DNA of 32,000 bases, from positions 822 to 32,821 of the forward strand of contig CAXGUD010000001.1 of assembly GCA_964012805.1 (NCBI GenBank). Reading direction: 5' to 3'. The notes beneath the pieces are model-generated. The model was not told the DNA's origin. It ran no database searches and saw only the letters and a list, made by a program, of their open reading frames with translations. Positions 1,425 to 20,467 of the stretch are shown in pieces; the stretch's first letter is position 1; each line of letters opens with the position of its first letter. Position numbers and translations under genes: made by a program. The DNA comes from an uncultured Bacteriovoracaceae bacterium. GTDB lineage: Bacteria; Bdellovibrionota; Bacteriovoracia; Bacteriovoracales; Bacteriovoracaceae.

Positions 1425-1428
1425 ATCT

Positions 1429-3311: not shown

Positions 3312-3338
3312 CTATCCGAATCTATTTTTGTCGCTCTT

Positions 3339-3859: not shown

Positions 3860-3894
3860 CCCGACTTTTTTTATTTCTTCAATAAAAAAACGGG
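3860..3894 (-). terminator. possible terminator hairpin for the peptidase/ABC transcription unit
   Basis: CCCG-U7-A ... U-A7-GUCGGG hairpin closed by 4 G:C pairs and followed on the minus strand by UUUUGG. The stem is mostly A:U and sits about 150 nt past the stop at 4046, so support is weak. Confidence 0.3.
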
Positions 3895-4045
3895 ACTTTT
3901 GTGCGAACCATGGCCTCTATTTCATGAATCATTACTTTTCTTATTAAGTTAAATCGGGCTTATTTAAAATACCTTCGGAACTTCGACTCTATTTTTATCA
4001 ATAATTTAAACAGAGAGATTCAATAGATAGAAATAATTTTGAAAT

Positions 4046-4732: not shown

Positions 4733-4754
4733 CCCTTACCTCCCTCTCCCTATT

Positions 4755-5042: not shown

Positions 5043-5045
5043 TGA

Positions 5046-5843
5046 TTAAACCCTCCCCAAAGAAAGACCTTTGGCCATATGATGACGGACGGCCCAAATG
5101 ACAAAAAGACCTGGAACAATCGTTAAAACCCCAGCCGCGGCCAAGAGCCCCCAGTCCTGTCCAGCAGCACCTCTCGTCCTTGTCATAACGGCGACAATGG
5201 GCTTGGCGTGTACCGAAGTTAAGGTTCTCGCTAAAAGAAGTTCTACCCAACTAAACATAAAGCAGAAAAAGGCAGCAACGCCAATTCCCGAACGAATAAG
5301 GGGGAGGAATAGCTTAATAAAAAATGACGGAAAAGAATGCCCCTCTAAATAGCTCATCTCGTCTATTTCTTTAGGGATACCGGACATAAAGCCCTCTAGA
5401 ATCCAAACACAAAGTGGGATATTAAAAAGTGTGTGGGCCAAGGCCACTCCCCATAAAGTGTCAAAGAGACCAAAGGTTGAGTAAAGTTGAAAAAAGGGAA
5501 CAAGAAAGACCGCTGGCGGTGACATTCTATTTGTTAGTAACCAAAAAAAGAGGTGCTTATCCCCCATAAAGCGGTATCTCGAAAAGGCGTATGCAGCCGG
5601 TAAAGATACCAACAAACAAAGAATTGTATTGAATAAAACGTATATAAGGGAGTTAAAATAACTCCCGTACCAACTCACATCCTGAAAAATGACCTTATAA
5701 TTCTTTAGCGTAAAGTTTTGGGGGAAAAAACTTAACTCCCCCAAGATTTCTGCATTAGATTTAAAACTCATATTGATAAGCCAATAAAGGGGAATCAATA
5801 TAAAAAGAAAGTAGAGGATTAAAAGCCCCGATCTTTTTTTCAT
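5046..5843 (-). CDS. carbohydrate ABC transporter permease (MalG/UgpE-type)
   Basis: Six hydrophobic segments and an EAA-loop-like GIPKEIDEMSYLEGHSFPSFFIKLFLPL. Its start overlaps the binding-protein stop by 4 nt (ATGA). Confidence 0.85.
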   Translation of the reverse strand: MKKRSGLLILYFLFILIPLYWLINMSFKSNAEILGELSFFPQNFTLKNYKVIFQDVSWYGSYFNSLIYVLFNTILCLLVSLPAAYAFSRYRFMGDKHLFFWLLTNRMSPPAVFLVPFFQLYSTFGLFDTLWGVALAHTLFNIPLCVWILEGFMSGIPKEIDEMSYLEGHSFPSFFIKLFLPLIRSGIGVAAFFCFMFSWVELLLARTLTSVHAKPIVAVMTRTRGAAGQDWGLLAAAGVLTIVPGLFVIWAVRHHMAKGLSLGRV

Positions 5844-7657
5844 TGAACACTCTTTTTAGGTTGAATCTTTTTTGCTTTCGCCACCTTTTTTGCCCTTTTT
5901 AAAGACCACTCTCTTAAAAGGGTTTTATAGGCAACAGTTTTCCCTTTGGGCTTTTCAACACTCATAAGAGCTTTAGGAGAACCGGGTTGCGATAACCAAA
6001 AGTCTCTTCCCTTAGGCGACTTGGCCATTTTTGGAGCACATTTTTTCATACCTATGCGCTCCAACCTTCCCATAATACGATCCATCTGATTGGCCAAACG
6101 GTCTAAGGCTTGTTGAGGCGTTTTTTCACCATTAATAGCAAGAGAAATATTTTGCCACCAAAGTTGGGCCAATCTCGGGTAATCTGGAACATTCGTACCG
6201 GTCGGTGTCCACCTTACTCTGTCAGGAGAACGGTAAAACTCAACGAGACCACCAAGCTTTGGCGCCATCTTGGTAACAACCGGTGAGTTCAAATCAGATT
6301 CACGAATAGGTGTAAGTCCTTTAATAAACTTTGTTAAAGAAACCGTTTTTGAAACACTAAACTGGGCATAAAGCCAAGCCGCTTTTCTCCTTATTAAAGG
6401 CGTGCTTTTAAGCATCGTCCAAGAACCTGCATCTTGATAACCAAGTTTCATCCCCTCTTCCCAATAAGGGCCATGAGGTGAAGGCGCCATCCTCCACTTA
6501 GGGGTTCCATCTTTATTAACAACTGGAAGACCTTTTTTGAGGCTTGCCTTTGTAAAAGCTGTGTACCAAAAAATCTGCTGGGCCACTTGGCCTTGAGAAG
6601 GCACAGGTCCTGCTTCTGAAAAAGTCATTCCAACGGCCTGTGGTGGAGCGTACTTTTTCAACCAGTCAATGTATTTCGTAAGTGCATAAACAGAAGCCGG
6701 TGCATTCGTCGCTCCCCCTCTTTCAACGCTTGCTCCTACAGGGCGGCAGTTTTCAACACGAATCCCCCACTCATCCACCGGAAGACCATTAGGAATTCCT
6801 TTACTTCCTGTTCCCGCCATAGAAAGCCAAGCGTCCGTAAAGCGCCAACCAAGGGAAGGGTCTTTTTTTCCATAATCCATATGGCCATAAACCCTCTTTC
6901 CATCAATAGTTTTAACATCATTAGTGAAAAAATTAGCTATATCTTCATAGGCAGACCAGTTTTTCGGAACACCTAACTCATAACCGTATTTTGCCTTAAA
7001 CTTCTTTTTAAGATCTGGTCTTTGAAACCAATCATGACGGAACCAATAAAGATTCGCAAATTGTTGATCCGGAAGTTGATAAAGCTTTCCATCCGGTCCT
7101 GTCGTAAAACTCTTTCCTATAAAGTCATCGATATCGAGAGTTGGAAGCGTGACATCTTTACCTTCTCCACCCATAAAGTCACTTAAGGGAACTATATAAT
7201 CCAACCGGGAGTGAGTTCCGATCAAGTCACTATCATTTACATACATATCATAAATGTTTCTACCAGTATGCATTTGAGTTTGAAGCTTTTCAATGACATC
7301 ACCTTCGCCAATAAGATCATGAGTTAACTCAATCCCCGTAAGCTCAGTAAAGGCCTTTGCTAAAGTTTTGGATTCATAAGAATGGGTATCAATACTTTCA
7401 CTAACAACTTGAATTTTCATTCCTCTAAACGGTTTCGAAGCCTTGATAAACCATTCCAACTCTTTTAGTTGATCATCTTTAGAAAGAGTTGAATCCTTAA
7501 ACTCTTTTTTAATGAGATCTTTCGCCTTTTTTAAGGCCATTTTTTCAAAGTCAGTTTGGACATCAGTCGAAGCTCCCAATCCAATAGAGAAAAGACTCAC
7601 AAACCCAATGAGTGAAAAAGTTTTTCGAAAAGACTTTAATAAATGAAAAGCTTTCAT
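5840..7657 (-). CDS. large extracellular solute-binding protein of the ABC importer (GlpV-like size class)
   Basis: 605 aa with signal peptide ...FVSLFSIGLGAS. Composition is typical of family-1 sugar SBPs (W/Y-rich, DYG/WRF blocks). It is embedded between the two permease genes with ATGA overlaps on both sides. Confidence 0.8.
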   Translation of the reverse strand: MKAFHLLKSFRKTFSLIGFVSLFSIGLGASTDVQTDFEKMALKKAKDLIKKEFKDSTLSKDDQLKELEWFIKASKPFRGMKIQVVSESIDTHSYESKTLAKAFTELTGIELTHDLIGEGDVIEKLQTQMHTGRNIYDMYVNDSDLIGTHSRLDYIVPLSDFMGGEGKDVTLPTLDIDDFIGKSFTTGPDGKLYQLPDQQFANLYWFRHDWFQRPDLKKKFKAKYGYELGVPKNWSAYEDIANFFTNDVKTIDGKRVYGHMDYGKKDPSLGWRFTDAWLSMAGTGSKGIPNGLPVDEWGIRVENCRPVGASVERGGATNAPASVYALTKYIDWLKKYAPPQAVGMTFSEAGPVPSQGQVAQQIFWYTAFTKASLKKGLPVVNKDGTPKWRMAPSPHGPYWEEGMKLGYQDAGSWTMLKSTPLIRRKAAWLYAQFSVSKTVSLTKFIKGLTPIRESDLNSPVVTKMAPKLGGLVEFYRSPDRVRWTPTGTNVPDYPRLAQLWWQNISLAINGEKTPQQALDRLANQMDRIMGRLERIGMKKCAPKMAKSPKGRDFWLSQPGSPKALMSVEKPKGKTVAYKTLLREWSLKRAKKVAKAKKIQPKKSVQ

Positions 7658-8523
7658 TCATTCTCCTTATTTAAAATCCAATTATAAAAAACAAAACTAA
7701 ACAAAAGAATAAAAAGGAAGTAGATGAGAGAGAAGGCGCTAGCAATGCCTAAATCAAATTGGCCAACAGCGAGTTTCGTTAAAAACTGACTCAAAAAAGT
7801 CGTTGAATTCCCAGGCCCTCCTCCTGTTAGAACAAAAGGCTCTGTGTAAATCATAAAGCTGTCCATAAAGCGAAGCATGACAGCGATCATCAAAACATTT
7901 TTTAATTTAGGAAGCTCAATATGACGGAAAACGGCCCAACGGTTGGCACCATCAATAGCAGCGGCCTGGTAATAGGCTTCCGGTATTGCTTTTAAACCAG
8001 AATAGGCCAACAGTACAACAAGAGGAAGCCAGTGCCAAACATCCATAACAAGAACCGTCCACCAGGCATGACTTGGATTATTAGCGTAATTGTAAGTTAA
8101 ACCCAATTGCTTTAGAGTGTGCCCTAAAAGACCTATGTCCGATCTTCCTAATATTTGCCAAATCATACCCACAACATTGTGAGGAATTAAAAGAGGCATG
8201 GCCAGAATAACCAAGCAGAAGGAAACTCTTTTTCCCTTTTTAGGCAACAGAAGAGCGACACCAACACCCAGAGGAATTTGAACAAATAAGACTAAAAAAG
8301 AAAAAAGCATTTGCCTTAGAAAAGCCTGGTGAAGCTCTCTATTTTGGAGGACTTCCCGAAACCACTCCCATCCGACAAAAACTCTTTGGTTAGGCCCCAT
8401 TATATCTTGAAATGAATAATTGACGACGGTCATTAGAGGAATAACTGCACTAAAGGCAACCATTAAAAAAACAGGAAGGACAAAAAGCCAAGCCTTTTCA
8501 TTTTTTATCTTGCCATCTTTCAA
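7654..8523 (-). CDS. carbohydrate ABC transporter permease (MalF/UgpA-type)
   Basis: Six TM segments and an EAA motif in IPEAYYQAAAIDGANRWAVFRHIELPKL. It overlaps the ATPase gene stop by 4 nt. Confidence 0.85.
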   Translation of the reverse strand: MKDGKIKNEKAWLFVLPVFLMVAFSAVIPLMTVVNYSFQDIMGPNQRVFVGWEWFREVLQNRELHQAFLRQMLFSFLVLFVQIPLGVGVALLLPKKGKRVSFCLVILAMPLLIPHNVVGMIWQILGRSDIGLLGHTLKQLGLTYNYANNPSHAWWTVLVMDVWHWLPLVVLLAYSGLKAIPEAYYQAAAIDGANRWAVFRHIELPKLKNVLMIAVMLRFMDSFMIYTEPFVLTGGGPGNSTTFLSQFLTKLAVGQFDLGIASAFSLIYFLFILLFSFVFYNWILNKENE

Positions 8524-9599
8524 AGAGACTCTCCAGGAAAAAGGGACACTTTACTCAAGGGAAACTCAACACCAACCCTGTCTCCATGGTGGATTGAATG
8601 GCGACCTTCCAAGACAGCTTTAATTGAAAAAGACTCTTGCTCCAAAGTGAGCAATTGACTTGCACCAAGATAATCCACCTTTTTCACCTTCCAAACCCAA
8701 TCATTTAAGAGACAGGGGTTTAAATTTAGACCAACATGCTGTGGCCTTATTCCTAAAGCCCCCACTCCGTCGGATTGCCTATCTAAGGTTTCAAGGTTTT
8801 TAAAATAGGATTCAATATGGGGAGTGACTTCCATAGGAGAAACTTTTCCCTTATGAACTTTGTAATTTAAAAAATTCATACCGGGAGTTCCAATAAAATG
8901 ACCAACAAAACTAGTTTTAGGGTTTTCAAAAAGGTCTCTTGGACAACCCTGCTGTAATATGCTCCCCTCCTCCATAACCACAACTTCTTCAGCAAAAGTA
9001 AGTGCCTCAGTCTGGTCGTGGGTAACATATAAAAAGCTCAATTCAAGCTCTGCATGAATCTCCTTTAACTTCTTACGGAGAAACCTTTTGAGGCGGGGGC
9101 TTACAGCGGTTAGAGGTTCATCAAAAAGTACCGCTGAGACATCTTTTCTAACAAGCCCTCTTCCAAGCGAAACGAGTTGCTTTAAATGAGGTGACAGTTC
9201 TTTTGCCCCATCCTTAAAGTGATCGGTAAGCTCCAACAATTCTCCTATTTCTTCAACTCTTTTTCTAATCTCGACAGAACCCATTCCGTAATTAAGAAGA
9301 GGAAAGGCCAAGTTTTGAAAAACAGTCATCGTATCGTAGACAACAGGGAACTGAAACACTTGCGCAATTTTCCGCTTTTGTGGTCCGAGGTTTGTCACGT
9401 CTTCTCCATCAAAAAGAACCTTACCCTCTGACGGAGTTAAAAGGCCTGACAAAATTTTAAGAAGGGTCGTTTTTCCACAGCCAGAAGGCCCTAAAAGAGC
9501 TATTCTTTTATGCTTTTCAAACATGCATTCAAGAGGTCCTAAAACCCATTTTTTCTGATCGTAGGAGTGCCTTACTCCTTGGAGTTCAATTTTTGCCAT
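8520..9599 (-). CDS. ABC transporter ATP-binding protein (MalK/UgpC-like) with degenerate signature motif
   Basis: Walker A is GPSGCGKTT, Walker B is VLFDEP and the H-loop is YVTHDQ. LSPHLKQ occupies the place of LSGGQ. A C-terminal MalK-type regulatory/TOBE-like region is present. Confidence 0.9.
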   Translation of the reverse strand: MAKIELQGVRHSYDQKKWVLGPLECMFEKHKRIALLGPSGCGKTTLLKILSGLLTPSEGKVLFDGEDVTNLGPQKRKIAQVFQFPVVYDTMTVFQNLAFPLLNYGMGSVEIRKRVEEIGELLELTDHFKDGAKELSPHLKQLVSLGRGLVRKDVSAVLFDEPLTAVSPRLKRFLRKKLKEIHAELELSFLYVTHDQTEALTFAEEVVVMEEGSILQQGCPRDLFENPKTSFVGHFIGTPGMNFLNYKVHKGKVSPMEVTPHIESYFKNLETLDRQSDGVGALGIRPQHVGLNLNPCLLNDWVWKVKKVDYLGASQLLTLEQESFSIKAVLEGRHSIHHGDRVGVEFPLSKVSLFPGESL

Positions 9600-9631
9600 A
9601 TACTGTGCCCTAGAAAATTAACCCTACTGTT

Positions 9632-10714
9632 TTAAGAAACACCACAAGGTGATTTTAGTAGTGGCCCTCCTAATTCAAAAACATAGGTCTCGCCCCAATT
9701 AGGCTTTAAATAATACACTTCACCTGGGATAAGATTTTCTATACCTCGTTTTTGTACCTGTAATTCAAGGCCATCCTCTTGCTTAAAGAAAGAAAAAGTT
9801 TCCAAACCATCAAATTCCTGATCTACCAACAGTGCCTCTAAGCAATGGTCGTCCTTTTTATTTACTATTTCTATATTTCCAGGCCTTATGCCTAAAAAGT
9901 ATTCGCCTAAGCCTACCCCTTTCAAATGAGTGGGAACAGGAAACGAAGACGCTTGCCCTAAAACAAGCTGAGACTCTTGTACACGACCTCTTAAAAGATT
10001 CATGGGAGGCTCACTCATCATCTGAGCGGTCTTAATATTGAGCGGCTTTTCAAATACATTCCGGGCCTTATCGTGCTGAAGAATCTGACCATCTTGTAAA
10101 ACAATCGTATCGCCACCCAGACTTAGGGCCTCCCTTGGATCAGCAGTTGCGTAGACAACCGTTGAAGAGCCTTTCTTCAAAATATCCTTTAATTCTTCAC
10201 GGAGTTGCTCCCTCAACTTGTAATCGAGGTTGACAAGAGGATCGTCCAAAAGAAGGAGGTCTGCATCCTTCGCCAGGGCCCTGGCAAAAGCACACCTCTG
10301 CTGCTGTCCACCTGATAACTCCGTCGGTAGACGCTTTAAAAAGTCATGTAGCCCAAATAGCTTGGCCAGCTCTTCAACTTTTTGATTGATTACGCCCTTA
10401 GCGCAACCCCTTCTTCTAAGGGGCGATGCAATATTTTCAAAAACTGTTAAGTTTGGGTAGTTAATAAACTCTTGGTATACAACAGCTATATTTCTTTTCC
10501 TTGGACTCAACCCTGATATATTCACTCCTTTTTGAAGAAGTCTTCCACCACACGGCTTCACAAGACCTGCCAAAACACGAAGTAACGTCGTTCTTTCTCG
10601 GCTTGCAGTCGAAAGAAGACCATGAAGAGTTCCCTCTTCAATTCTGAGGTTTATTCCTGCCAGGATATCTTTTCCTTCATCACGTACAGCAATATTTTCC
10701 ATCACCAAGGCCAT
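9632..10714 (-). CDS. ABC transporter ATPase-like subunit with degenerate Walker A, Walker B and H-loop but intact LSGGQ
   Basis: LSGGQQQRCAFARAL is intact. Walker A position reads LLSTASRERTT, Walker B reads LLLLDDP and the H-loop reads YATADP. A MalK-type C-terminal domain is present. Confidence 0.85.
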   Translation of the reverse strand: MALVMENIAVRDEGKDILAGINLRIEEGTLHGLLSTASRERTTLLRVLAGLVKPCGGRLLQKGVNISGLSPRKRNIAVVYQEFINYPNLTVFENIASPLRRRGCAKGVINQKVEELAKLFGLHDFLKRLPTELSGGQQQRCAFARALAKDADLLLLDDPLVNLDYKLREQLREELKDILKKGSSTVVYATADPREALSLGGDTIVLQDGQILQHDKARNVFEKPLNIKTAQMMSEPPMNLLRGRVQESQLVLGQASSFPVPTHLKGVGLGEYFLGIRPGNIEIVNKKDDHCLEALLVDQEFDGLETFSFFKQEDGLELQVQKRGIENLIPGEVYYLKPNWGETYVFELGGPLLKSPCGVS

Positions 10715-10897: not shown

Positions 10898-11263
10898 TCA
10901 GAGAGAGTCCAAAAGCTCATAGAGTTCTTCGAGAATTAAAGGCTTTTGAAGAAAGAAACTTAAAGACAAAGAAGATGCCAAAGCTTTTACTTCTTTAATA
11001 TTTCCTGAGATAAAGACAATGATAGTATTTTGATTCGGCCCATCAGAGTTCCTGATATCCACGGCCAAATTTGCACCTTTAATCACAGGCATCCTGTGGT
11101 CTAAAAAAATAACATCAAAAGCTTCATTATCAAGAAGATCTTTATATTGGTCTTTTTCACTAGCGATAGAAACTTCATATGAAGATCTGAGTTCAAGACC
11201 TTGCTTAAGCATTTCAAGAATTTCTTCTTCGTCGTCAATAATAAGTATCTTTTTTTTGCCCAT
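10898..11263 (-). CDS. single-domain response regulator (CheY-like receiver)
   Basis: KKILIIDDEEE...DVIFLDHRMP...FISG...KP receiver pattern. I prefer the ATG at 11263 because AGGTGGG lies 4 nt upstream. The GTG at 11272 used by the ORF track lies inside that Shine-Dalgarno. Confidence 0.8.
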   Translation of the reverse strand: MGKKKILIIDDEEEILEMLKQGLELRSSYEVSIASEKDQYKDLLDNEAFDVIFLDHRMPVIKGANLAVDIRNSDGPNQNTIIVFISGNIKEVKALASSLSLSFFLQKPLILEELYELLDSL

Positions 11264-11365
11264 AAAACCCACCTGGCTTACCTGACTACACCGTTTAAGT
11301 AATAAACCGATTTCTTTTTCAATTTTACCTGAAATCCAAAAAGATTGAAGGCGTTATCTTTCCAT

Positions 11366-11384: not shown

Positions 11385-11543
11385 GAACTCATTTAGAAAA
11401 CTGTTTTAGTCTCTTTCTTTCTATGGCCACCAAATAAAAACCTTTAATAATTTTATTTAAAGTCGACAAGAACTAACAATAAGGAATTGTTTTTTAGAAG
11501 TTTTAATTTCTAAAACCGGAGTTTGAAGGAAAATAAAAAAAAA

Positions 11544-12587
11544 ATGCATAGAACAATTAAATCATTCACCCTTATTGTATTTCTTATCCTGATCATACTA
11601 CAAGACAGATCAAAAGCCGCATCTGAGAAGACCGCTTCCCCCGTTTATAATACTTTTGAATACTTGCTAGGAGAATTCAAAGCAGATATTGATGGTCTTG
11701 CAAAAAAAGTTAGTAATTCGATCCTTCTTAAAGTTTCAGTTGAAGGAGATATAGATAAAACCTTTAATAGGCATGTTAGGCGGTCTTTAGAGTCTTTTCG
11801 CATTAAAGGAAAAAAGTTTCGCTTCCGCCAATGTAAGGCCTGTACTTCTTTAAGGGCCGAAACGATAGGCAATCAAATATACCTTAAAAAGGGAATTACA
11901 GAATTTAAGGATATTCAGGAAATCACTCAAAAACTTGGAACAATGTCTTACGCGGAAGCAAGTGTCGAGGATACCGGAACAAGGCTCATTTTTAAGGTTT
12001 CTTTTTTTAGCTCGCTCAATGCAGAACTTCTTTGGAGTAAAACCTATCAAATGAGGCTCGTCAGCTTTGGTGACCTCAGTTTTACAGCAGCGCTTGAAGT
12101 TAAACAGGCCTTTGGAAGAAATAGCCCTCTTCTTTTTAATGCCTCTTTTGGTGAAAAAATCTATGGTATAGGCCTTATTGACCTCAATGTCACACTAGGC
12201 TTAGCATCAGGGAAAGATAACCCCGAGCAAAAAAAAGGTAGTAGTATCGTCCTTAACCCCAATGAAGATTATGTGAACAGTTACTTTGCTATAGGGCCAA
12301 GGTTAACAGTTAACATTAACGAATTTTTTCAAATGTATTCAAACTGGGGAAGTCAGTTTATCTATGCAGGAACCGGTTTTTGCCAATACACTCGATTGAA
12401 AACAAGCAACGATACAGAAGCACCTACTGGAAAATGGGGCCTTCATATTGAAGCGGGGTATGGAGTTCATCTGGGTAGAACTTTTCTCATCACAGCAGGT
12501 TTAAACAAAGGTCTTTTTCTCAGTTCAGATGACAAAGATCAGGATTATCCTCTTCTCTTTAATATAGGATTTGGATTTAGGTTTTAA
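11544..12587 (+). CDS. outer-membrane beta-barrel protein with N-terminal periplasmic domain
   Basis: Signal peptide MHRTIKSFTLIVFLILIILQDRSKA. The C-terminal half has alternating amphipathic strands and ends ...FNIGFGFRF (terminal Phe). ATG 11544 is preferred over TTG 11523, which sits only 1 nt after GGAG. Confidence 0.6.
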   Translation: MHRTIKSFTLIVFLILIILQDRSKAASEKTASPVYNTFEYLLGEFKADIDGLAKKVSNSILLKVSVEGDIDKTFNRHVRRSLESFRIKGKKFRFRQCKACTSLRAETIGNQIYLKKGITEFKDIQEITQKLGTMSYAEASVEDTGTRLIFKVSFFSSLNAELLWSKTYQMRLVSFGDLSFTAALEVKQAFGRNSPLLFNASFGEKIYGIGLIDLNVTLGLASGKDNPEQKKGSSIVLNPNEDYVNSYFAIGPRLTVNINEFFQMYSNWGSQFIYAGTGFCQYTRLKTSNDTEAPTGKWGLHIEAGYGVHLGRTFLITAGLNKGLFLSSDDKDQDYPLLFNIGFGFRF

Positions 12588-12606
12588 TTTAAGCAAGCAT
12601 TTTTGA

Positions 12607-13302
12607 ATGAGTGTTATCCCCAAAAAGAGAAAAACCATGATGAAAAAATTATTAATTTCTTTTTTTATCCTTGGACCGTTAACTCAATTGAGTTTCTCTC
12701 AAACATCAATCAAAGAAAAAGACGGCTATATCATCATAAAAGAAGGAAAAAGCCGGGTTCAACTCAACCTTCCGGAAGAAATGAAAGGAGCTGATTCCTA
12801 CATTATAAAGGTGAACAAACTTACAGACTCCAAATCTATTAACGCCGACATTTTAAACCGATCGAAAAACCTAGGTCTTTTTAAAAAAACAAAGGATGAT
12901 CTTAAAAAAGGAGCCGTTAACGAAGCCCTTAAAATTGAATTAATCAAAAAAAGCAATGAAGGAACTTTGAGTAAAAAAGAATTAAAGCTTCTCAATGACT
13001 TAAAGGATCAAGAAAAAGATATTAACAAGAAAAAGAATTTAGATGTTATCACAAACCTTGCCATTGAGAGTTATCTTAAAAAGGCTAATGACGCCTACAA
13101 TGCGAAAAATTATAAAAAGGCCCTTCATTACTCGGAAATGGCCGATCAATTAGACTCTAAAAATTATCGAATCAAGGCCATGATAGGTTCACTTCACTAC
13201 CGATTAGGAAATGACCAACTCGCCAAAAAGTATTGGACGGATTCGCTAAAGTTCAACCCCAACCAACCGAATATTAAGCTGTACATGAGAAAAATAAGGT
13301 AA
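12607..13302 (+). CDS. secreted TPR-repeat protein
   Basis: Signal peptide MMKKLLISFFILGPLTQLSFSQ, so the true start is probably the in-frame ATG at 12637. C-terminal TPR-like repeats: AYNAKNYKKALHYSEMADQLDSKNYRIKAMIGSLHYRLGNDQLAKKYWTDSLKFNPNQ. Confidence 0.7.
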   Translation: MSVIPKKRKTMMKKLLISFFILGPLTQLSFSQTSIKEKDGYIIIKEGKSRVQLNLPEEMKGADSYIIKVNKLTDSKSINADILNRSKNLGLFKKTKDDLKKGAVNEALKIELIKKSNEGTLSKKELKLLNDLKDQEKDINKKKNLDVITNLAIESYLKKANDAYNAKNYKKALHYSEMADQLDSKNYRIKAMIGSLHYRLGNDQLAKKYWTDSLKFNPNQPNIKLYMRKIR

Positions 13303-13377
13303 TTTTTTTAAAAGTGACAAACGTTTCAATCTTAAATGACTTACCTTTTAAGACTGTTCGTTTATGAAGAGATGTAA

Positions 13378-15186
13378 ATGAGGCTTAATTTAAAATTAAA
13401 ATATTTATGGATCTTCTTAATTTTTCTTCTCTTCAGCGGGCCTAAAGGTGCTTTTACACAAGAAGCATCTCTTATGAGGAACCAACTTCAGCTCGAAAGT
13501 GAACTTAATTCACAAGTAAGAAAAGAGCTCCTCCAAGTTTTCAAAAAAGAGGAATTTATTATCTCTTCCTCTATAAAATTAAAAAGTTACAGAGTTACAA
13601 AAGTTCTGGAACAAGAAAGCCAAATAAACAAACAACCTAAAAAAAAGGGAAGTGAGCAAGAAATACTGCCAGGTTTTTACGATTCTGCCCCCTCAATAAC
13701 AAACGAAATGGCCAATGAACAAGTAAGAAAAGTATATGGCCACGAAACAAAAACTGAATTAGAAAAGGCCCAATTGAAGATTTTAGTCGATGAAAGCGTA
13801 ACAGATACCAGGCTTGACGCAGCAAAAAAATTACTCACTCAAAGGTTAACAAATAGCTTTGGAGGAAAAATTGACATCCAATTCCTCCCAGCTGTCCTCA
13901 AATCAAAATTAGCACCAGTTCCTTTTTACCAAGAGTTTACTGGATACCTAAAGGATAATATGGGACTGCTTCTCCTGTTTTTTTGTTCACTTATCTTTCT
14001 TTTTGTCCTTGCTTCTTTAATCAACCGTATAAGGCCAAAAGATCAAATGCCTCCGGTTTGGTCATATAACCCACCTATGACACCCCCAATAGATTCAATG
14101 GGAGGCTTTGGTGGCCCCCCTCCTCTTCCTGGAGGAGGTCAAAGACCTCATATAGAATTAGGCCCCAACACTCTTCCCCTACCAGGAAGTCATGAAAAAG
14201 AACTTGATGAATTAGAAATAGACAAAAAAATAAACAAATTTGTTAGCGTTATATGCAAAGAACCTTTTGTCACAAGAAAGTTTTTTCAGACCCTTGATAG
14301 AGATAATCAAAAAAGCTTTATGGCGCTTTTTACAAGTAAGAGTTCAAAAGTGGCGCTTGGAGAATTTTTTGGAGAAACACTTTTAGGACCAGAAGCAGGC
14401 GATATTGCCAGTCTGGACAATGAGATGGACCTTGAGGAAAAAGCCGAATTTTTAGAGTTTATCTCTCTAGAACATGATAGATTTAAAAACCTTATGGCCA
14501 TCAAAAATGGCCAGCGTTTTTCTATTTTATCTCTTATGAATGATAAGGAACTTCAATACGTCTTTTCGAATGAGTCCCCCAGAGATATTGCTTTTCTCCT
14601 TCACTTTCTTCCAAGAGACTCCATTTCTGGTGTTTTAAGCAGGATGGATAGCGAACAGAAAACTGAAATTATTTTAAACTTGAAAAAGTCCTCTCAATTA
14701 TCAGGAGAAGATGAAAGAGAAATTGAAGAAAGGCTTAATAAAAAAATTAATACTTTTGCCTCAAGCGCTTTTTCAACTTTCATGAGTGAAGACTCCTTAG
14801 TTGGAAGTATCTTAGATGAGTCCGATAATGCCCAAGAAATTTTAGATAGAATATCAAGTAAAGATAAAAACCTTGCTAAAAGCTTCAAATCCCACTCATT
14901 AAACTTTGATTATTTTATAGAAAATGAATTGGACTCTCTTGCAAGAATTTTTGAAACAATACCAAATGAAATGTTGGCCTTAAGCCTTATCGAATATGGT
15001 AAAGATGAAAGATCAACAATTTTAGAAGCACTTTCCCCCACAAGGAGAAAAGTCATCGCTTCTTCAATGCTCATGAACTCAAAAGCATCACACGAAGAAA
15101 TAAGAAAAGCCAAATTAGAGTCATCTAAGATTGCTCGGAAAACCTATCAATTATTACAAAGAAATAAAATGGGTAAGGCATCATGA
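13378..15186 (+). CDS. membrane-anchored FliG-like protein (periplasmic FliF/YscJ-like region, TM, Pro/Gly linker, FliG middle and C domains)
   Basis: Signal/TM at aa 1-27 and a second TM near aa 195-216. PPPLPGGG-rich linker. ESPRDIAFLLHFLPRDSISGVLSRM resembles FliG EHPQTIALILSYL. IPNEMLALSLIEYGKDERSTILEALSPTRRKVIASSM resembles the FliG C-domain pattern. Confidence 0.6.
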   Translation: MRLNLKLKYLWIFLIFLLFSGPKGAFTQEASLMRNQLQLESELNSQVRKELLQVFKKEEFIISSSIKLKSYRVTKVLEQESQINKQPKKKGSEQEILPGFYDSAPSITNEMANEQVRKVYGHETKTELEKAQLKILVDESVTDTRLDAAKKLLTQRLTNSFGGKIDIQFLPAVLKSKLAPVPFYQEFTGYLKDNMGLLLLFFCSLIFLFVLASLINRIRPKDQMPPVWSYNPPMTPPIDSMGGFGGPPPLPGGGQRPHIELGPNTLPLPGSHEKELDELEIDKKINKFVSVICKEPFVTRKFFQTLDRDNQKSFMALFTSKSSKVALGEFFGETLLGPEAGDIASLDNEMDLEEKAEFLEFISLEHDRFKNLMAIKNGQRFSILSLMNDKELQYVFSNESPRDIAFLLHFLPRDSISGVLSRMDSEQKTEIILNLKKSSQLSGEDEREIEERLNKKINTFASSAFSTFMSEDSLVGSILDESDNAQEILDRISSKDKNLAKSFKSHSLNFDYFIENELDSLARIFETIPNEMLALSLIEYGKDERSTILEALSPTRRKVIASSMLMNSKASHEEIRKAKLESSKIARKTYQLLQRNKMGKAS

Positions 15187-15240
15187 ATGAAGATAAGGAA
15201 AAAAATAGTTTTATAAAACCAAACAAAATAAAGGTCTAAA

Positions 15241-15990
15241 ATGCTAGCGAGATTACTACAACTCCCCTTCAGAATTTTGGGAATAGCCTTGATTTTGGCC
15301 GGGACCTATATTTGTGTTAAGTATGATGTGAAGCCTTCTTATTACGGTATTTACCATCCACCATCTCTTGCCCTTGTTGGTTTAGTTTTGGCCGGTGTGG
15401 CGATGTTCAGCTATAAAATTCAAACACTCTTTAGTATTTTCTTAGGTTGCTTAGGTGAATCACCCAGTTCATGCCGCTCCTATTTTCAAATCATGGAAAA
15501 AAAACTACCGGAACTTATTGACGTTTACTTTAGTGAAGGGCCCTCGGCACTAACCTCTCGCCTCCCTAACGGGTCAGAAAAAGAGCTTTGGCTTCAGGTC
15601 TTTACTAAGTTAGAAGCACAAATTTCACCAAGTGATTTGATTCAGGTTATGAATAAATATGCTTCTGACTATAAATCAAGAATCAATAGAGAAGTTTTAG
15701 TCGCCGGAACGGTAGGAAGTTTGGCCCCAACAATAGGTGTTTTAGGTACAGTTTTGGGCCTTATAAAACTTTTAGGGAACCTTCAGGACTTTTCAAGCTT
15801 GGGTTCTAATATGGCCTTGGCACTGATAACAACTCTTTATGGAATTGTTTTCAATGCGCTTCTCATAACTCCCGTTGTAGGTCGGTTAGAGGAATATAGG
15901 ACCTTTAGGCTTCAAATTTTTAGACAGATAATTTATTGGCTTGAATGCCTGGAACAAAAAAGAGCAGGCAGTGTTATAGAGCATAAATAG
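15241..15990 (+). CDS. MotA/PomA-type stator channel protein (MotA/TolQ/ExbB family)
   Basis: 4-TM MotA topology: two N-terminal TMs, a cytoplasmic loop of about 90 aa, then two C-terminal TMs. Conserved prolines occur in SLAPTIGVLGTVLGL and ALITTLYGIVFNALLITPVVGRL. Confidence 0.8.
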   Translation: MLARLLQLPFRILGIALILAGTYICVKYDVKPSYYGIYHPPSLALVGLVLAGVAMFSYKIQTLFSIFLGCLGESPSSCRSYFQIMEKKLPELIDVYFSEGPSALTSRLPNGSEKELWLQVFTKLEAQISPSDLIQVMNKYASDYKSRINREVLVAGTVGSLAPTIGVLGTVLGLIKLLGNLQDFSSLGSNMALALITTLYGIVFNALLITPVVGRLEEYRTFRLQIFRQIIYWLECLEQKRAGSVIEHK

Positions 15991-16020
15991 TCTATAAAAA
16001 ATAAGGAGTCACAACTCCAG

Positions 16021-16713
16021 ATGACCAAAAAACGTCATAAGGAAAAAGCTTCCTCTTTCGATGATGACCAAGAAAGCGGAGCTGAGAGCATTTCTAAATC
16101 TAGCTGGGCCGCATCCTATGGTGATGTTGTTAGTGTTCTTTTGTGTTTTTTTATCATCCTTTCAACAACAAGTAATATGAATTCAAAAAATGTTGAAAAA
16201 ATGAAAGAGGCCATGAGTGATGAAACACCTCAAGGTAAAAAGAAAAAGCTCAAATCAAAAGACGTCATGAAAAAACTCAAAGAGATAATTAAAATAAAAA
16301 ATCTTCAGAAGGATATCACTCTTGTAGAGGAACTTGACGGAACAAAGCTCATTATTAATGATCGTCTTCTTTTTTCTTCAGGAGGCGCAAAAATCATGCC
16401 TGAAAACATCGGAGAAATAAGAGAAATTATAAGAAGCTTTATCGACCTACCACCTCACTACCGGTTTAAAGTCGAAGGCCATACAGATGATGTTCCCATC
16501 AAAAGTAGAAAATTTCCTACAAATTGGCACCTCTCAGTTTCAAGGGCCCTTTCTCTTTTACAAGTTTTTCTTCAAGAAGGTATTTATGAAAAAAGACTAA
16601 GCTTCCATGGCTTTGCTTCATTCCAACCTCTTGCAAAAACTGAGGGGCTTCAGGGTGAAGACCTTAGAAAGGCCAGAAAAAAGAACAGAAGAGTTGTCAT
16701 TAAGGTTTACTGA
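16021..16713 (+). CDS. MotB-like stator protein with OmpA-type peptidoglycan-binding domain
   Basis: N-terminal SWAASYGDVVSVLLCFFIIL (conserved Asp before a single TM). C-terminal VEGHTDDVPI...NWHLSVSRA...NRRVVIKV OmpA/MotB domain. Confidence 0.8.
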   Translation: MTKKRHKEKASSFDDDQESGAESISKSSWAASYGDVVSVLLCFFIILSTTSNMNSKNVEKMKEAMSDETPQGKKKKLKSKDVMKKLKEIIKIKNLQKDITLVEELDGTKLIINDRLLFSSGGAKIMPENIGEIREIIRSFIDLPPHYRFKVEGHTDDVPIKSRKFPTNWHLSVSRALSLLQVFLQEGIYEKRLSFHGFASFQPLAKTEGLQGEDLRKARKKNRRVVIKVY

Positions 16714-16766: not shown

Positions 16767-17855
16767 ATGAAAAAGAAACACCCATTTTTTTTGGGACTTT
16801 GTATTAAGGTCCTTCTTTTTACCATAATTTCTCCTTTCGGGGAAGCTGCAACGAACTTTTTTAAAATCACAAACATTAATTCAGGGGGTGATCCACTTGT
16901 TAACGCTGCACTTTTGGAATTTGAATCCAATGTCAATCAAAATCTTCCTTCAATAGAAAGTACTGACCTGACAACAGATACAGTCAACTCCAATATCATC
17001 TCTAATAAGGGACTTGGAGTTGACTATACAAACTCCATGAAACGTTTTTTGGTAGGCTGGTCTCAAAGTGCTTCAGTTAATGTCGGAAGCAGTGAAAATA
17101 TCCTAAGTGGGGCCAAAACCGTAAAAGGTTTTGGAATGGCAACCCAATTTAACTTAGGGTTTAACCTTCAACCTTTAAAGAAACGTAAATTGATCAACCT
17201 ACCTTCATTTTGGGGTCTCGACCTTAATAACTCAAAAATTTTTATGGGCCTAATGACCGGACGAACAAGCCAAAAAGTAAGTGGTTATACACTCGGCTTC
17301 GAAATTTTTACCGCCAACCTCCGTATTATGACGAAGCTCAAAAAAGCTGAAGACTTCAAAAGCTACTTTTTTAAGTGGGGTGGTATTGACTTAAGCACAG
17401 GGCTCGAAACTAATAAAACAGCCCTCTCAGTCAGTGTGCCAAGAAATGAGTCAATTACGGCTTCCAATTCATACAAAACAACTTTTGACGGCATAGTTGG
17501 CTTTAAGGTCGATTCCTCAAGTTTTAGTATTCCTCTTGAAGTCTCAGCCAGTGCAACCTTCTTTTCTTTTATCGATTTGTTTTGGGGCCTTGGTACTGAT
17601 TTAAACTTTGGGTATGGAAGGGGCTCGAGTTTTTCAGACTCTAATGTCTTGATCTTTGATAACTTAAATAACCAAGTTGGAACTGCTGACGCCGAGTTCA
17701 ATGTAGGCTCAACAGGGTCCCCCTCAATCTTGAATGCTCGGTGGTTTGCTGGGACCCAAGTTAACCTATGGAAAATGAAAGTTTCACTTCAAGCACAACA
17801 TTCTATGATCCACGGGATTTGGGGCTTTGGAGGTAATTTTAACTTCATTTTTTAA
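16767..17855 (+). CDS. outer-membrane beta-barrel protein
   Basis: Signal peptide MKKKHPFFLGLCIKVLLFTIISPFGEA. Gly/Ser/Asn-rich alternating strands throughout, ending ...GGNFNFIF. Confidence 0.6.
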   Translation: MKKKHPFFLGLCIKVLLFTIISPFGEAATNFFKITNINSGGDPLVNAALLEFESNVNQNLPSIESTDLTTDTVNSNIISNKGLGVDYTNSMKRFLVGWSQSASVNVGSSENILSGAKTVKGFGMATQFNLGFNLQPLKKRKLINLPSFWGLDLNNSKIFMGLMTGRTSQKVSGYTLGFEIFTANLRIMTKLKKAEDFKSYFFKWGGIDLSTGLETNKTALSVSVPRNESITASNSYKTTFDGIVGFKVDSSSFSIPLEVSASATFFSFIDLFWGLGTDLNFGYGRGSSFSDSNVLIFDNLNNQVGTADAEFNVGSTGSPSILNARWFAGTQVNLWKMKVSLQAQHSMIHGIWGFGGNFNFIF

Positions 17856-17872: not shown

Positions 17873-20467
17873 TTAGATACTTGGAATAATTAAAGAAAAG
17901 GTTGTCCCCTCTCCTTCCTTCGTATCAATTTCGATTCTGCCGCCTAGACTTTCAATATTTTTAAGGACGACATCCATTCCCACTCCCCTACCGGATATCT
18001 CAGTTACATTACTCGCCGTCGAAAAGCCTGGTTTAAAAATGAGTTCTGTCTTTTCTTTTTCATTTAAAAAGTCTTTCGTGGAATCTATGAGACCTTTTTC
18101 TATGGCCTTATTATAAACATCTTCACCATTGATTCCCCGGCCATCATCTTTCAAAGTTAGAATAATATCAGGTCTTTTACGGGTTAGACTAACTTCTATA
18201 TTTCCACTTTTTTCAATTCCATGAGCTATACTATTATTGATAAGATGGATAACAGATTCCCTTATAATTTTTGCATTTTTTCTGTCAAAAAGGGCCTCTA
18301 CTCCACTTACTTTAAAAGATACATTTTTTTCAAGTTTTCTTGCTTCTCTAAAAACTGTTGGCTTTAACTTCAACAATTCTCCTTTTAATTCACTCATCAT
18401 GAGGTTTGCAAAAATTCTTAAAACGGCTTTTGCAGAAGTCATCTCTTTAGCTGAATGAAGAGCTACTTCAAATTTATTTTTTGGGACCTCGATAAACTCC
18501 TCAGACCCATCACTTTCAGAGGAAAGAAACTCTTCCCCAAAAACTTCTTGCGCGCTCTCTTTATAAAAAGTAAGGAGTTCCGTGAGCATTTCTTTAGTCC
18601 GTTCTATCCCATTTTTTTCATAATCAGTTTCAAATCCATGAACTTTATTACTTAATGACTCCAAATTAAAGAACCTTGAACTTCCTTTAATTGTGTGCAG
18701 ACTTCTTTTGACCCCTTCCTCATCACCCCACTCTTCCAATGTTTCAAAAACCTCTTTAATAAAAACTCTAAATTCACTTTTAGTATTGGAAACAATTTCC
18801 TGGAGGACTTGAATCCTGTATTCAGCTTTTTCCTGAGAAACTCTAACAGCTTCTTTTAACTTTTCCTCCTCAGTTATGTCCTCAATAATAAACATAATTC
18901 TTCTTACGATTTCTTGATCATCAATAATAGGACTTAATTGAATTTTTACAATCTTCTCATCTCCGTTTTCCATTTTTAAATTAGTCATCTTGGGAATAAC
19001 ATCTTGCATACTATCAAATTGGAAAATATCCATGTTGATAGAAATACTAAAGACAAAGGCCATTTTTTCTCTAAATTCTTGATTAAAAAGCTCCGCACAT
19101 ACATTTTTCCCTACAATATCTACACCAAATATTTCCGCAGAGTATTTTGAGACAGGAAAAATTACTTTATAAGATTCATCCACAGAAAAAACAGCTTGGC
19201 GCATATTATTCAATATATCTTTTGTCTCATTCAATGAGGAAAAGAGTTCATTTGTCCTTGCTTTAACTTTATTTTCCAAACCCAAATTTGTTTTTTCAAT
19301 TTTACGATAGAGCAATTTAAGTTTATGGTTAGCATCATTTAACTCTTCCGCCCTAATTGCGATGTCATCCCTTTGTAATTTTATATACTCTGCAAAACCA
19401 AAGGACAGAACAATAAGCTTGAGAGAAGTACCTAATAAAAGAGAGTTATCAATGAAGAGGTAAGGTCCAAGAACTTTAAATTTAAATAATATCTGGACAA
19501 TAACAAACAGAACAAAAATATTAAGCGATATGAAAAAATATTTAGCAGTAACACTACCCTTCCTTAATTCATCGTAGGAAAACCAGAATGAAAAAATTAT
19601 GATGGTTGAAAAATAAAAATAAGAAAAGCCTAGGCCGGCCGTAATGGGAGTAAAGAGGCAAACAAAGGTCAGGACGAGTCCTCCCTTTATAAAATTGTTG
19701 CAAAAGTGCAGTAGTTTTTCTCTATCCAGATTTATATAACTTTTTCCAAAAATCAATAAAGTGACGCCAGTTAGGGCAACTAAGCTATTTTGGCCTTGAC
19801 CAGATAACCAGGAACCTTTAAGAAAAGAAACAAATACCATAAGCGTTAATGATAAAACAAAGGCATAAAGAGAAAAAAGAATATAGTTAATATAATTGGA
19901 GGTTAAATAATTGAAAATATTATAAATTATTAATAAAATAATAACTCCATAAAAAAATGAATATAAAGTTTTTTCTTCAAATTGTTTTTCATAGAAAGAA
20001 TCAATCTTTAAAATAGAGATGGGCAACTTTACTTTTTCTTTAAACCTATTACTTTTAAGAACTTGGATAAGCACTTCACTTGTATTTGATTTAATTTTAA
20101 AACTAGGATGTCTATTTTTTAGCCTGAAAAGCATAGAATTATCAGGAGACCAAACCTCAGTTCCTCCTGAAGCTGACTTATAGTAGAATTTAAAGTTCTG
20201 AAAATAGCTATTGTTTATAGTAATAACCTTTTCGAAAGGCCGCTTGGAAATTTTAACCTTTATGTATAGGTCTTTTTTAAAATCATTTAAGATATAGGAG
20301 TCTTCGATGGATTTAACTTTTTGAATATTATTTGGTTTAATAAGTCCTTTGACACCTTCTTCTAACGAACCCAAATATTGAAAAGCCTCGACTTCATATC
20401 CAGAACCAGAAAAACTATTTCCCATGAATAAAGAAATAAAAAATAGAAATGTTATTACTGTTCTCAA
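17873..20467 (-). CDS. sensor kinase: 7TMR-DISM extracellular and 7TM domains, coiled coil, PAS-like, Hpt and CheA-type ATPase domains
   Basis: TTG start, signal peptide, periplasmic domain of about 150 aa, then seven hydrophobic helices (aa about 170-365). Hpt motif LHTIKGSSRFFNLESLSNKVHGFE. CheA-like N box IHLINNSIAHGIEK, DDGRGI and GRGVGMDVVLKNIESLGGRIEIDTKEGEGTTF. Confidence 0.8.
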   Translation of the reverse strand: MRTVITFLFFISLFMGNSFSGSGYEVEAFQYLGSLEEGVKGLIKPNNIQKVKSIEDSYILNDFKKDLYIKVKISKRPFEKVITINNSYFQNFKFYYKSASGGTEVWSPDNSMLFRLKNRHPSFKIKSNTSEVLIQVLKSNRFKEKVKLPISILKIDSFYEKQFEEKTLYSFFYGVIILLIIYNIFNYLTSNYINYILFSLYAFVLSLTLMVFVSFLKGSWLSGQGQNSLVALTGVTLLIFGKSYINLDREKLLHFCNNFIKGGLVLTFVCLFTPITAGLGFSYFYFSTIIIFSFWFSYDELRKGSVTAKYFFISLNIFVLFVIVQILFKFKVLGPYLFIDNSLLLGTSLKLIVLSFGFAEYIKLQRDDIAIRAEELNDANHKLKLLYRKIEKTNLGLENKVKARTNELFSSLNETKDILNNMRQAVFSVDESYKVIFPVSKYSAEIFGVDIVGKNVCAELFNQEFREKMAFVFSISINMDIFQFDSMQDVIPKMTNLKMENGDEKIVKIQLSPIIDDQEIVRRIMFIIEDITEEEKLKEAVRVSQEKAEYRIQVLQEIVSNTKSEFRVFIKEVFETLEEWGDEEGVKRSLHTIKGSSRFFNLESLSNKVHGFETDYEKNGIERTKEMLTELLTFYKESAQEVFGEEFLSSESDGSEEFIEVPKNKFEVALHSAKEMTSAKAVLRIFANLMMSELKGELLKLKPTVFREARKLEKNVSFKVSGVEALFDRKNAKIIRESVIHLINNSIAHGIEKSGNIEVSLTRKRPDIILTLKDDGRGINGEDVYNKAIEKGLIDSTKDFLNEKEKTELIFKPGFSTASNVTEISGRGVGMDVVLKNIESLGGRIEIDTKEGEGTTFSLIIPSI

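Follow-up and report, generated by a model that had tools for sequence, protein, structure and literature searches.

A natural fusion of FliF-like and FliG-like regions encoded with its own MotA and MotB: a candidate rotor of a probably non-flagellar envelope module in Bacteriovoracaceae

The DNA analysed here is a 32,000-nucleotide stretch (the window) from an uncultured Bacteriovoracaceae bacterium (GenBank assembly GCA_964012805.1, contig CAXGUD010000001.1, positions 822 to 32,821), in which an operon of five genes spans positions 11523-16713. The third gene encodes a protein, here called FG, that joins a periplasmic module resembling part of FliF to a FliG-like cytoplasmic region in one natural chain. 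Genes for a MotA-type and a MotB-type stator subunit follow it, and genes for a secreted protein, here called X, and a TPR protein precede it (Table 1). The original prediction, made from the FG gene itself, had described a single polypeptide resembling a FliF-FliG fusion. Translation of positions 13378-15186 shows the open reading frame (ORF) and all the features listed for it in their expected places, and Pfam, profile, AlphaFold2 and Foldseek analyses agree on a single polypeptide that carries a periplasmic ring-building module, a transmembrane segment, a Pro/Gly-rich linker and a FliG-type cytoplasmic region. What that prediction lacked was the operon context, with its dedicated MotA/MotB pair and two accessory genes, and this context is decisive for the interpretation of FG.

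Two hydrophobic segments enclose the periplasmic region of FG, as they do in FliF. The first is LWIFLIFLLF (residues 10-19, read from the translation), after which AxA-like sites occur in several family members in the sequence alignment; the second is GLLLLFFCSLIFLFVLASLI (residues 196-215, from nucleotide 13960 onward), which is followed by the positively charged NRIRPK, as expected from the positive-inside rule. The Pro/Gly stretch PPVWSYNPPMTPPIDSMGGFGGPPPLPGGGQRP (residues 226-258, read from the translation) belongs to a linker that varies in both length and sequence among family members, and the cytoplasmic tail that emerges from the second membrane segment is covalently continuous with the FliG-like region. 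Compared with its closest genomic relative (locus L001), FG is under strong purifying selection, with a ratio of non-synonymous to synonymous substitution rates (dN/dS) of ~0.04 at near-saturated synonymous sites. The proportion of non-synonymous differences (pN) between the two proteins is 0.11 in the periplasmic part, 0.016-0.056 in the FliG middle and C-terminal domains and 0.004 in the membrane-proximal helical domain.

Table 1. Features of the operon and of the FG protein in the window (all coordinates are window positions)
Feature	Coordinates	Strand	Description
Accessory gene X	11523..12587	+	Secreted; invariant CxxC; beta-rich C-terminal region ending aromatic (...GFGFRF)
Accessory TPR protein	12607..13302	+	Signal peptide; conserved ~70-aa C-terminal unit with two TPR repeats
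FG ORF	13378..15186	+	ATG 13378, stop at 15186, 602 aa; RBM3-like/FliG-like natural fusion, candidate rotor
FG signal peptide or first transmembrane segment, aa 1-24	13378..13449	+	Hydrophobic core aa 10-19; model helix 2-19
FG periplasmic ring-building module, aa 25-175	13450..13902	+	Alpha-beta-beta-alpha-beta with long beta-hairpin; FliF RBM3/beta-collar type
FG LPGF motif, aa 97-100, hairpin-tip loop	13666..13677	+	Most conserved periplasmic feature of the family
FG second transmembrane segment, aa 195-216	13960..14025	+	Periplasm to cytoplasm; from sequence; model helix 183-217
FG Pro/Gly-rich disordered linker, aa 222-272	14041..14193	+	pLDDT <50
FG membrane-proximal helical domain, aa 277-390	14206..14547	+	In the position of the FliF C-terminus and FliG_N
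FG FliG middle (ARM_M) domain, aa 391-462	14548..14763	+	Pfam FliG_M (PF14841) 43.1 bits, cut-off 25
FG FliG C-terminal domain, aa 491-588	14848..15141	+	Pfam FliG_C (PF01706) 33.4 bits, cut-off 23.3
FG Arg556-Arg557 dyad	15043..15048	+	Start of predicted torque helix; family-specific conserved charge
MotA-type stator A subunit	15241..15990	+	249 aa; Pfam MotA_ExbB (PF01618) 69.7 bits, cut-off 22.9
MotB-type stator B subunit	16021..16713	+	230 aa; transmembrane Asp35, plug, OmpA-like peptidoglycan-binding domain
Lsa36-family surface/outer-membrane protein	16767..17855	+	Last co-directional gene; NCBIfam LIC_11975/Lsa36 71.6 bits, cut-off 90

The relationship of the cytoplasmic region to FliG is evident at the level of both profiles and structure. 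A profile of the 99 full-architecture family members that we aligned (alignment A3) matched the middle and C-terminal domains of Thermotoga maritima FliG (1lkv) with E = 4.2e-38, and hhalign against a 17-sequence FliG alignment placed FG residues 299-600 colinear with Escherichia coli FliG 10-326 (probability 99.9, E = 7e-33). Full-length FliG chains (8wiw_3, 3hjl) were the top Foldseek matches of the FG model at E 1.5e-7, the alignments covering 307-326 columns of chains that are 310-331 residues long. The segment ESPRDIAFLLHFL (residues 399-411, nucleotides 14572-14610), which had been likened to a block of the FliG middle domain, does lie within an above-threshold FliG_M match. FliG_C, which in FG includes the predicted torque helix, was matched in all 27 family members scanned (E <= 1), and its fold superimposes on that of FliG in a MotAB-FliG complex (8ucs_H) with a template modelling score (TM-score) of 0.78 and a root-mean-square deviation (rmsd) of 1.9 Å over 81 columns (Foldseek). 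An overlapping Pfam MgtE_N match also falls on FG. Equivalog-level scores for FliG were not reached (TIGR00207, 44.4 bits against a cut-off of 226.7; NF004260, 26.5 against 550), and with 602 residues and a membrane anchor FG is not the soluble protein of ~330 residues that stands beside fliF or fliH in a flagellar cluster.

The FliG N-domain had been thought absent from FG, the covalent fusion having made it dispensable. By sequence the FliG_N signature is indeed all but missing. The Pfam FliG_N (PF14842) match on the window protein scores 17.2 bits against a cut-off of 25 and falls on the middle-domain region; the excised segment 270-392 had no Pfam match in nine of ten diverse members and only a faint FliG_N match in the tenth (P0095, E = 0.0066); and the N part taken alone is colinear with E. 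coli FliG 10-118 at an hhalign probability of only 33%. A helical domain of FliG_N size nevertheless occupies the expected place. Residues 277-390 form a domain of ~110 residues, modelled as helices between residues 278 and 377 with a predicted local distance difference test score (pLDDT) of ~90, and the Foldseek alignments to near-whole FliG chains take it in. Although this domain is divergent in sequence from FliG_N, no other part of FG differs so little between the window and L001. The covalent link has thus probably not made the domain dispensable, and the N-domain of FG is more likely to have diverged than to have vanished.

Two sets of residues that are functionally important in flagellar FliG have not been kept in FG. 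At the FliM-binding EHPQR motif the window protein reads E399-S-P-R (ESPR in place of EHPQ); across the 99 members the Glu and Pro are partly retained (in 48 and 43 sequences, respectively) and the His and Gln positions vary. The charged torque-helix positions of E. coli FliG (K264, R281, D288, D289 and R297) correspond to I538, T555, S562, S563 and S571 in the window, and none of the five is conserved as a charge across the family. Instead, the predicted torque helix opens with a family-specific dyad: 91 of the 99 members have Arg at residue 556, and 66 have Lys or Arg at residue 557. In the alignment the position of E. coli R281 comes immediately before R556. The hinge that precedes the C-terminal six-helix bundle retains its F-x-F/L-E/D-D character. 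The last ~110 residues thus follow the FliG C-domain pattern in fold and hinge, as had been proposed, but not in the classical charged ridge.

For the periplasmic part, an AlphaFold2 model built on the 99-sequence alignment (overall pLDDT 84.5, above 90 in structured parts) superseded a first run on seven close sequences, which had a pLDDT of 57 and served as a lead only. The model contains helix 26-51, strand 60-82, a loop at 83-114 that carries the LPGF motif, strand 115-138, helix 143-161 and strand 165-172, which is the alpha-beta-beta-alpha-beta order that had been guessed from the sequence, here with pLDDT >90; the hairpin is 23 residues long. Elsewhere the model has a signal or transmembrane helix at 2-19, a transmembrane helix at 183-217, disorder at 222-272 and an all-helical region at 278-601. 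In Foldseek searches of the PDB the only significant matches of the periplasmic part were S-ring/RBM3 chains of FliF (RBM, ring-building motif), with E values of 3.2e-4 to 1e-2: 8z5v_A (3.2e-4), then 8z4d, 8z4g, 8zdt, 6sd1 and others. SpoIIIAG came next in the list, at E = 0.089, and the first, weaker model had matched FliF RBM3 chains as well. The LPGF motif is close to invariant in the family, with P98 present in 97, G99 in 98 and F100 in 91 of the 99 members.

Profile searches gave further, marginal signals. The family profile matched FliF chain 12dr_A at E = 0.0024 (FliF 245-288) and could be aligned colinearly with two stretches of E. coli FliF, 234-287 and 396-511, which we take to be the RBM3 halves flanking the collar insertion, plus the second transmembrane segment. 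PF08345 was matched in one of the 27 members scanned (E = 0.0088). RBM1 and RBM2, the SctJ-homology modules (Pfam PF01514), had no Pfam match in the window protein or in the members scanned, and the periplasmic region, at only ~150 residues, is filled by a single module. Ring-building motifs of the FliF/YscJ type had been suspected here; the model bears out the FliF RBM3-like part of that suggestion and not the YscJ/SctJ-type RBM1/RBM2 part. These data support a resemblance of the modelled module to FliF RBM3 with its beta-collar hairpin, as also seen in SpoIIIAG.

The two genes downstream of FG encode a stator pair of flagellar type. Such stators ('FIT' clade) are marked by a plug and an OmpA-type anchor, both of which are absent in Exb/Tol-type relatives (PMC12505986). 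Alignment with E. coli MotA gives the window A subunit four transmembrane segments, with a cytoplasmic domain of ~90 residues between the second and the third, and NCBIfam models for MotA/PomA/MotP score 50-66 bits on it, against 29 for TolQ and 15-18 for ExbB. The B subunit has a channel aspartate, D35, aligned with E. coli D32, together with Pfam matches to MotB_plug (42.6 bits, cut-off 24) and OmpA (37.4 bits, cut-off 27.2), so that the pair has these flagellar-type features: a four-helix A subunit and a B subunit with channel Asp, plug and OmpA-like domain. NCBIfam MotD/MotB/MotS models score 88-122 bits on MotB, all below their equivalog cut-offs; the best MotA model reaches 66.4 bits against 340 and the best MotB-type model 121.7 against 283. 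Both subunits are highly constrained relative to L001 (dN/dS of 0.01 for MotA and 0.04 for MotB).

This arrangement is conserved well beyond the window. The ORFs of all loci were scored with FG, MotA, MotB, TPR and X profiles, and 15 loci had enough flanking sequence for comparison (the window, L001, L003-L007, L010-L016 and L018), L011-L016 being independent of the building of the search profiles. The FG members at these loci are very divergent (~16-25% identity), yet FG shares its gene cluster with MotA and MotB in 15 of 15 loci and adjoins them directly in 14; in L007 two genes intervene. TPR homologues fall within the module in every locus with the relevant flanking sequence, and X homologues do likewise except in L005 and L007; in L001, L003, L004, L006, L010, L011, L016 and L019 they occupy the place in the operon that X has in the window. 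The genes are rearranged in L005 (TPR-MotA-MotB-FG) and L007 (FG-374 aa-TPR-MotA-MotB/TPR fusion), which speaks for functional linkage over frozen synteny. Pfam searches of the 32-kb window and of the genes listed for seven other loci found nothing else flagellar, and no fliH, fliI, fliM, fliN, flhA or rod gene lay near FG in any locus looked at. A metagenome scan with a sub-clade alignment (A5) returned seven loci, one of which (L017) is a classical fliF-fliG pair, with a 534-residue FliF upstream of a FliG of ~345 residues and no MotAB beside them. A scan of the operon for promoters and terminators gave no more sites than shuffled sequence.

The accessory proteins are less readily identified. 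The true start of X is likely the ATG at 11544. In the family alignment (A4) an invariant CxxC (C104, C107) precedes a conserved KG (K123-G124); no relative of X was found in the PDB or Pfam, the matches to Pfam OMP_b-brl being weak (E = 0.002-0.006) and below cut-off. From the character of its sequence X is probably an outer-membrane beta-barrel. The TPR protein, which is probably periplasmic, matches Pfam TPR_2 at residues 193-219 with E = 2e-5, its 24.8 bits falling short of the curated cut-off (27).

Word-indexed searches found six close relatives of FG and reach its close clade only; the distant members emerged when 1.84 billion representatives were searched exhaustively with HMMER, which returned 276 proteins at E <= 1e-3. 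The full FG architecture is present in at least 94 of the best 150 matches. Most of these 150 are 510-650 residues long and align from end to end, and classical FliG proteins (~330 residues) appear only from ~1e-11. The family is highly divergent: beyond the clade of the window protein, identity to that protein is 15-26%, and clustering at 25% identity yields 25 groups. Its near-invariant positions are P98-G99-F100 (of LPGF), F381 (in FGFL, before ARM_M), N530 and R556. All members come from metagenomes or metagenome-assembled genomes (MAGs), and they are labelled "hypothetical protein [Deltaproteobacteria bacterium]", "hypothetical protein" or, in the single case of P0019, "flagellar motor switch protein FliG". 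The closest genome locus, with 87% identity and identical synteny, is in a Halobacteriovoraceae MAG (Bdellovibrionota); the profile search of genome contigs, which used a narrow alignment (A1), found one locus. Carriers are mostly uncultured, and organism labels are attached to just two of them, both Bdellovibrionota/"Deltaproteobacteria" MAGs.

Some loci depart from the common form of the module. In L007 (4864-7070) the MotB carries a C-terminal TPR extension and a PorP_SprF-family gene comes after it; a DUF1577 gene, of a family known from Leptospira, is found near the module in L018 (18134-19267). The PorP_SprF and DUF1577 genes hint that the carriers span several phyla. In L019 (5094-6993) and L020 (5039-6951) a break in the linker divides FG between two neighbouring ORFs that are in different frames, a FliF-like one (signal, RBM3-like module, transmembrane segment and linker) and a FliG-like one that starts just before a conserved P-[LV]-[IV]-[SA]-R motif, both following MotA-MotB. 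The breaks lie in poly-C or poly-A linker sequence, at least one of the assemblies has 1.75x coverage, and the splits may be frameshift artefacts; should they be real, FG would also exist in a natural unfused form. In a crude neighbour-joining tree of the middle and C-terminal domains FG and classical FliG did not separate cleanly: six FG members, among them P0095, grouped with the classical set. The tree is too rough to tell a sister position of FG from one nested within classical FliG, or to point to the ancestral form.

We consider it probable that the X-TPR-FG-MotA-MotB operon encodes a self-contained, non-flagellar, ion-driven rotor-stator machine of the cell envelope, because a fused FG and its own MotA/MotB occur together in a conserved operon with no other flagellar genes. 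The domains of FG and its partners are identified, the operon is conserved across distant loci and the stator retains its catalytic and anchoring features; from these we infer that FG forms a ring, that the ring rotates and that it is coupled to the outer membrane. In such a machine FG would be exported by means of its N-terminal signal sequence and anchored by one transmembrane helix. Its RBM3-like periplasmic modules would oligomerise into a ring, the long hairpins forming a beta-collar with the near-invariant LPGF tips facing away from the inner membrane, and the flexible linker would join this ring through the membrane to the FliG-like N-M-C region, which would act as a cytoplasmic torque ring. 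MotA and MotB, anchored to peptidoglycan, would conduct ions through the channel at MotB Asp35, and the MotA cytoplasmic domains would push on the FliG_C torque helix, where Arg556-Arg557 lie, and so turn the FG ring. The periplasmic collar could then pass work on to the TPR protein and X, with surface motility, movement of outer-membrane proteins or transport as the output. Since there is neither a FliM-binding motif nor RBM1/RBM2, the machine would have no switch complex and no type III export gate, and hence would not be a flagellar basal body.

A more specific version of this proposal comes close to being evenly balanced, and we offer it tentatively: a free-standing rotary envelope motor, in which the FG ring is spun by its own MotAB and the collar drives the TPR protein and the outer-membrane protein. 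Such a motor could be a surviving relative of a rotor-stator unit that predates the joining to the type III export apparatus, or a derivative that was reduced and re-used.

Several observations weigh against a rotor-stator machine of this kind, the first of which concerns the rotor-stator interface. In the flagellar motor MotA R90 pairs with FliG D288/D289, and MotA E98 with FliG R281 (PMC12505986). The window MotA has Phe and Thr at the positions of R90 and E98, and FG has Ser at both D288 and D289; the classical electrostatic interface is therefore absent from the window pair. Among 13 aligned module MotA proteins the R90 position is aromatic in most, inside a [FY][YF]xxG motif, and the E98 position is acidic in nine, including the largest clade, with Thr in the window. 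The R90-D288/D289 pair has thus been lost on both partners, and an Arg near R281 has been kept together with a mostly acidic E98 position. This coordinated pattern of charges counts on the other side, for it is suggestive, though no more than that, of a real but remodelled FG-MotA interface.

The periplasmic assignment has weaknesses of its own. Foldseek superpositions of FG on FliF RBM3 chains have TM-scores of only ~0.4 and rmsd values of 9-12 Å, although the hairpin of a monomer model need not have the conformation that it would take up in a ring. In hhalign comparisons the FG periplasmic profile matched FliF only weakly (probability ~10%), with a score of 25.6 that is barely above the 22.5 of the best unrelated ORF among 173 controls; the other FliF in the data, not from E. 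coli, ranked third among these controls. Neither E. coli FliF alone nor E. coli FliF combined with the L017 FliF gave a significant result, and the relatives retrieved for a wider FliF profile were all from Enterobacteriaceae, at 85-100% identity. Because the profile-profile comparison with FliF is non-significant, the RBM3 assignment of FG is mainly a structural one. More generally, ring formation, which in FliF brings together ~33-34 subunits, and rotation are argued from homology, and the absence of flagellar genes was judged at the loci themselves. Rings of RBMs can also be static, as SpoIIIAG and SctJ show, so FG might form a scaffold that does not rotate.

That last point leads to the strongest of the alternatives, which we nonetheless regard as unlikely: that FG is a static scaffold or force-transduction adaptor, with MotAB docked on its FliG-like domain, and that FG, singly or as a small oligomer, relays conformational energy in a Tol/Ton-like manner to the TPR protein and X, with no turning. 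All the other non-flagellar relatives in the MotAB/ExbBD/TolQR group energise outer-membrane processes through a partner that spans the periplasm (PMC12505986). The module likewise includes periplasmic and outer-membrane partners, the model weakly matches the static SpoIIIAG ring protein, and FG has lost the classical torque-helix charges. The stator is nevertheless of flagellar type, with plug, OmpA-like domain and a four-helix MotA, and not of Exb/Tol type. Strong selection has maintained the FliG-like region in all its parts (N, M and C), among them the fold by which FliG_C touches MotA in 8ucs, and the hairpin-bearing RBM3 module is known solely from large rings.

Less likely still is that FG is an unusual but genuine MS-ring/C-ring of a real flagellum and that the neighbouring MotAB serves in swimming. 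Every recognisable domain is flagellar (RBM3-like, FliG middle and C-terminal, MotA and MotB with plug and OmpA-like domain), one member is auto-annotated as FliG, and the closest genome belongs to Halobacteriovoraceae, a family whose cultured members are flagellated. Engineered FliF-FliG fusions, moreover, assemble rings (PMC6079021, PMC11481574). This explanation is difficult to reconcile with a periplasmic part of only ~150 residues that has neither RBM1 nor RBM2, the modules that in FliF share homology with SctJ and surround the export gate, or with a FliM-binding motif that is not conserved. The genes around FG are MotAB, TPR and usually X, instead of the fliH, fliI, fliM, fliN, flhA and rod genes, whereas the classical fliF-fliG pair of L017 looks different and has no MotAB beside it; the TIGR00207 (fliG) score of FG is also far below cut-off. 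Finally, it is very improbable that FG is a regulatory decoy or clutch, a membrane-anchored FliG mimic that keeps stators off a true flagellar motor, for while FG does retain FliG_C without the FliM-binding residues, and its operon has genes for a CheY-like response regulator and a hybrid histidine kinase on its two sides, a decoy would need none of the conserved ring module, LPGF, TPR protein and X, and flagellar MotAB is not being borrowed since FG has a dedicated, co-evolving MotAB in every locus.

We also considered the Zorya defence system (ZorAB with ZorC/D/E), in which ZorA has a long C-terminal tail and ZorC/D are effectors, and rejected it: the ZorA model scores only 13.3 bits on the window MotA, and the ZorB matches in the module reflect the generic MotB/OmpA fold. 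Models for Zorya and other defence systems gave no matches for FG or X, and for the TPR protein only a chance-level match to HEC-01B (13.5 bits).

The gene that follows MotB, of the Lsa36 family, is present in L001 and does not adjoin the module in other clades. Measured against L001 it evolves much faster than FG, MotA and MotB do (pN = 0.485, dN/dS = 0.30), and its membership of the module is uncertain. Signalling genes lie on either side of the operon. A CheY-like single-domain response regulator (10898-11272, minus strand) is divergent and 250 bp upstream, and a 7TMR-DISM/PAS/Hpt/HATPase hybrid histidine kinase (17873-20467, minus strand) is convergent and downstream; L001 has a large minus-strand ORF in the corresponding place (6876-9485), which may encode the same kinase. 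These bracketing genes could control the machine. Elsewhere in the window the G+C content steps from ~0.30 (positions 1-4000) to ~0.40 (4001-10000), and the higher-G+C stretch holds an ABC importer operon (5046-10714, minus strand) with two ATPases, two permeases and a 605-residue solute-binding protein. Farther downstream are an allantoicase gene (23389-24402) and a gene for a 697-residue protein with a transglutaminase-elicitor domain (26107-28200), with no evident link to the module.

If the rotor-stator reading is true, these five genes would be the smallest natural rotor-stator system, consisting of a rotor, a stator and two envelope partners, and structural and single-molecule work on torque would become easier without the ~25 other flagellar proteins. 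To our knowledge, torque generation between FliG and MotA is otherwise known only inside the flagellum. The module would also make the origin of the flagellar motor testable, as either a rotor-stator unit independent of the type III export apparatus or a later reduction, and a function in motility or the envelope that has so far gone unrecognised may lie behind it. We found no description of the FG module in the literature searched, which consisted mostly of openly accessible journals, and the only natural FliF-FliG fusion that we found there is the Chlamydiaceae protein (PMC4768692).

The flagellar motor is among the known systems closest to the FG module. Like flagellar FliF and FliG taken together, FG has an RBM3-type module with a hairpin, a second transmembrane segment, a disordered linker and helical domains that end in FliG_C, and like the flagellar rotor it is partnered with a plug-bearing, OmpA-anchored MotAB. 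Unlike them it is one natural gene, has no RBM1 or RBM2 and has lost the FliG_N signature; neither EHPQR nor the charges at K264, D288, D289 and R297 are conserved, and an RR dyad is present instead. It also lies outside any flagellar neighbourhood, and a TPR protein and a putative outer-membrane protein are encoded in its operon.

The Chlamydiaceae FliF-FliG fusion is similarly a natural single chain that is not part of a functional flagellum, and two hydrophobic segments flank its shortened periplasmic region (PMC4768692). As described by Bergeron (2016), it has ~330 residues, RBM2 and one unassigned RBM, no SpoIIIAG-like RBM3 and only a FliG_M-like region, and FliF, FliL and FlhA are the only flagellar genes listed for Chlamydia, which therefore has no MotAB stator (PMC4768692). 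FG, in contrast, keeps the opposite, RBM3-like module and the whole N-M-C FliG-like region, and is always accompanied by MotAB. With SpoIIIAG, to which its model is weakly matched, FG shares an RBM fold that bears an inserted long beta-hairpin, which in SpoIIIAG builds a large ring-shaped beta-barrel. SpoIIIAG belongs to the sporulation machinery of Firmicutes, and we know of no FliG-like domain or stator partner in that system.

A further comparison can be made with ExbBD-TonB, TolQR-TolA, AglRQS-Glt, GldLM and ZorAB, all of which, like the FG module, combine an ion-driven stator-type complex with envelope partners in a non-flagellar setting (PMC12505986). None of these systems is known to use a FliG-type partner. 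The B subunits of these non-flagellar relatives of MotAB are also without the plug and the OmpA-type domain (PMC12505986), whereas the MotB of the FG module has both.

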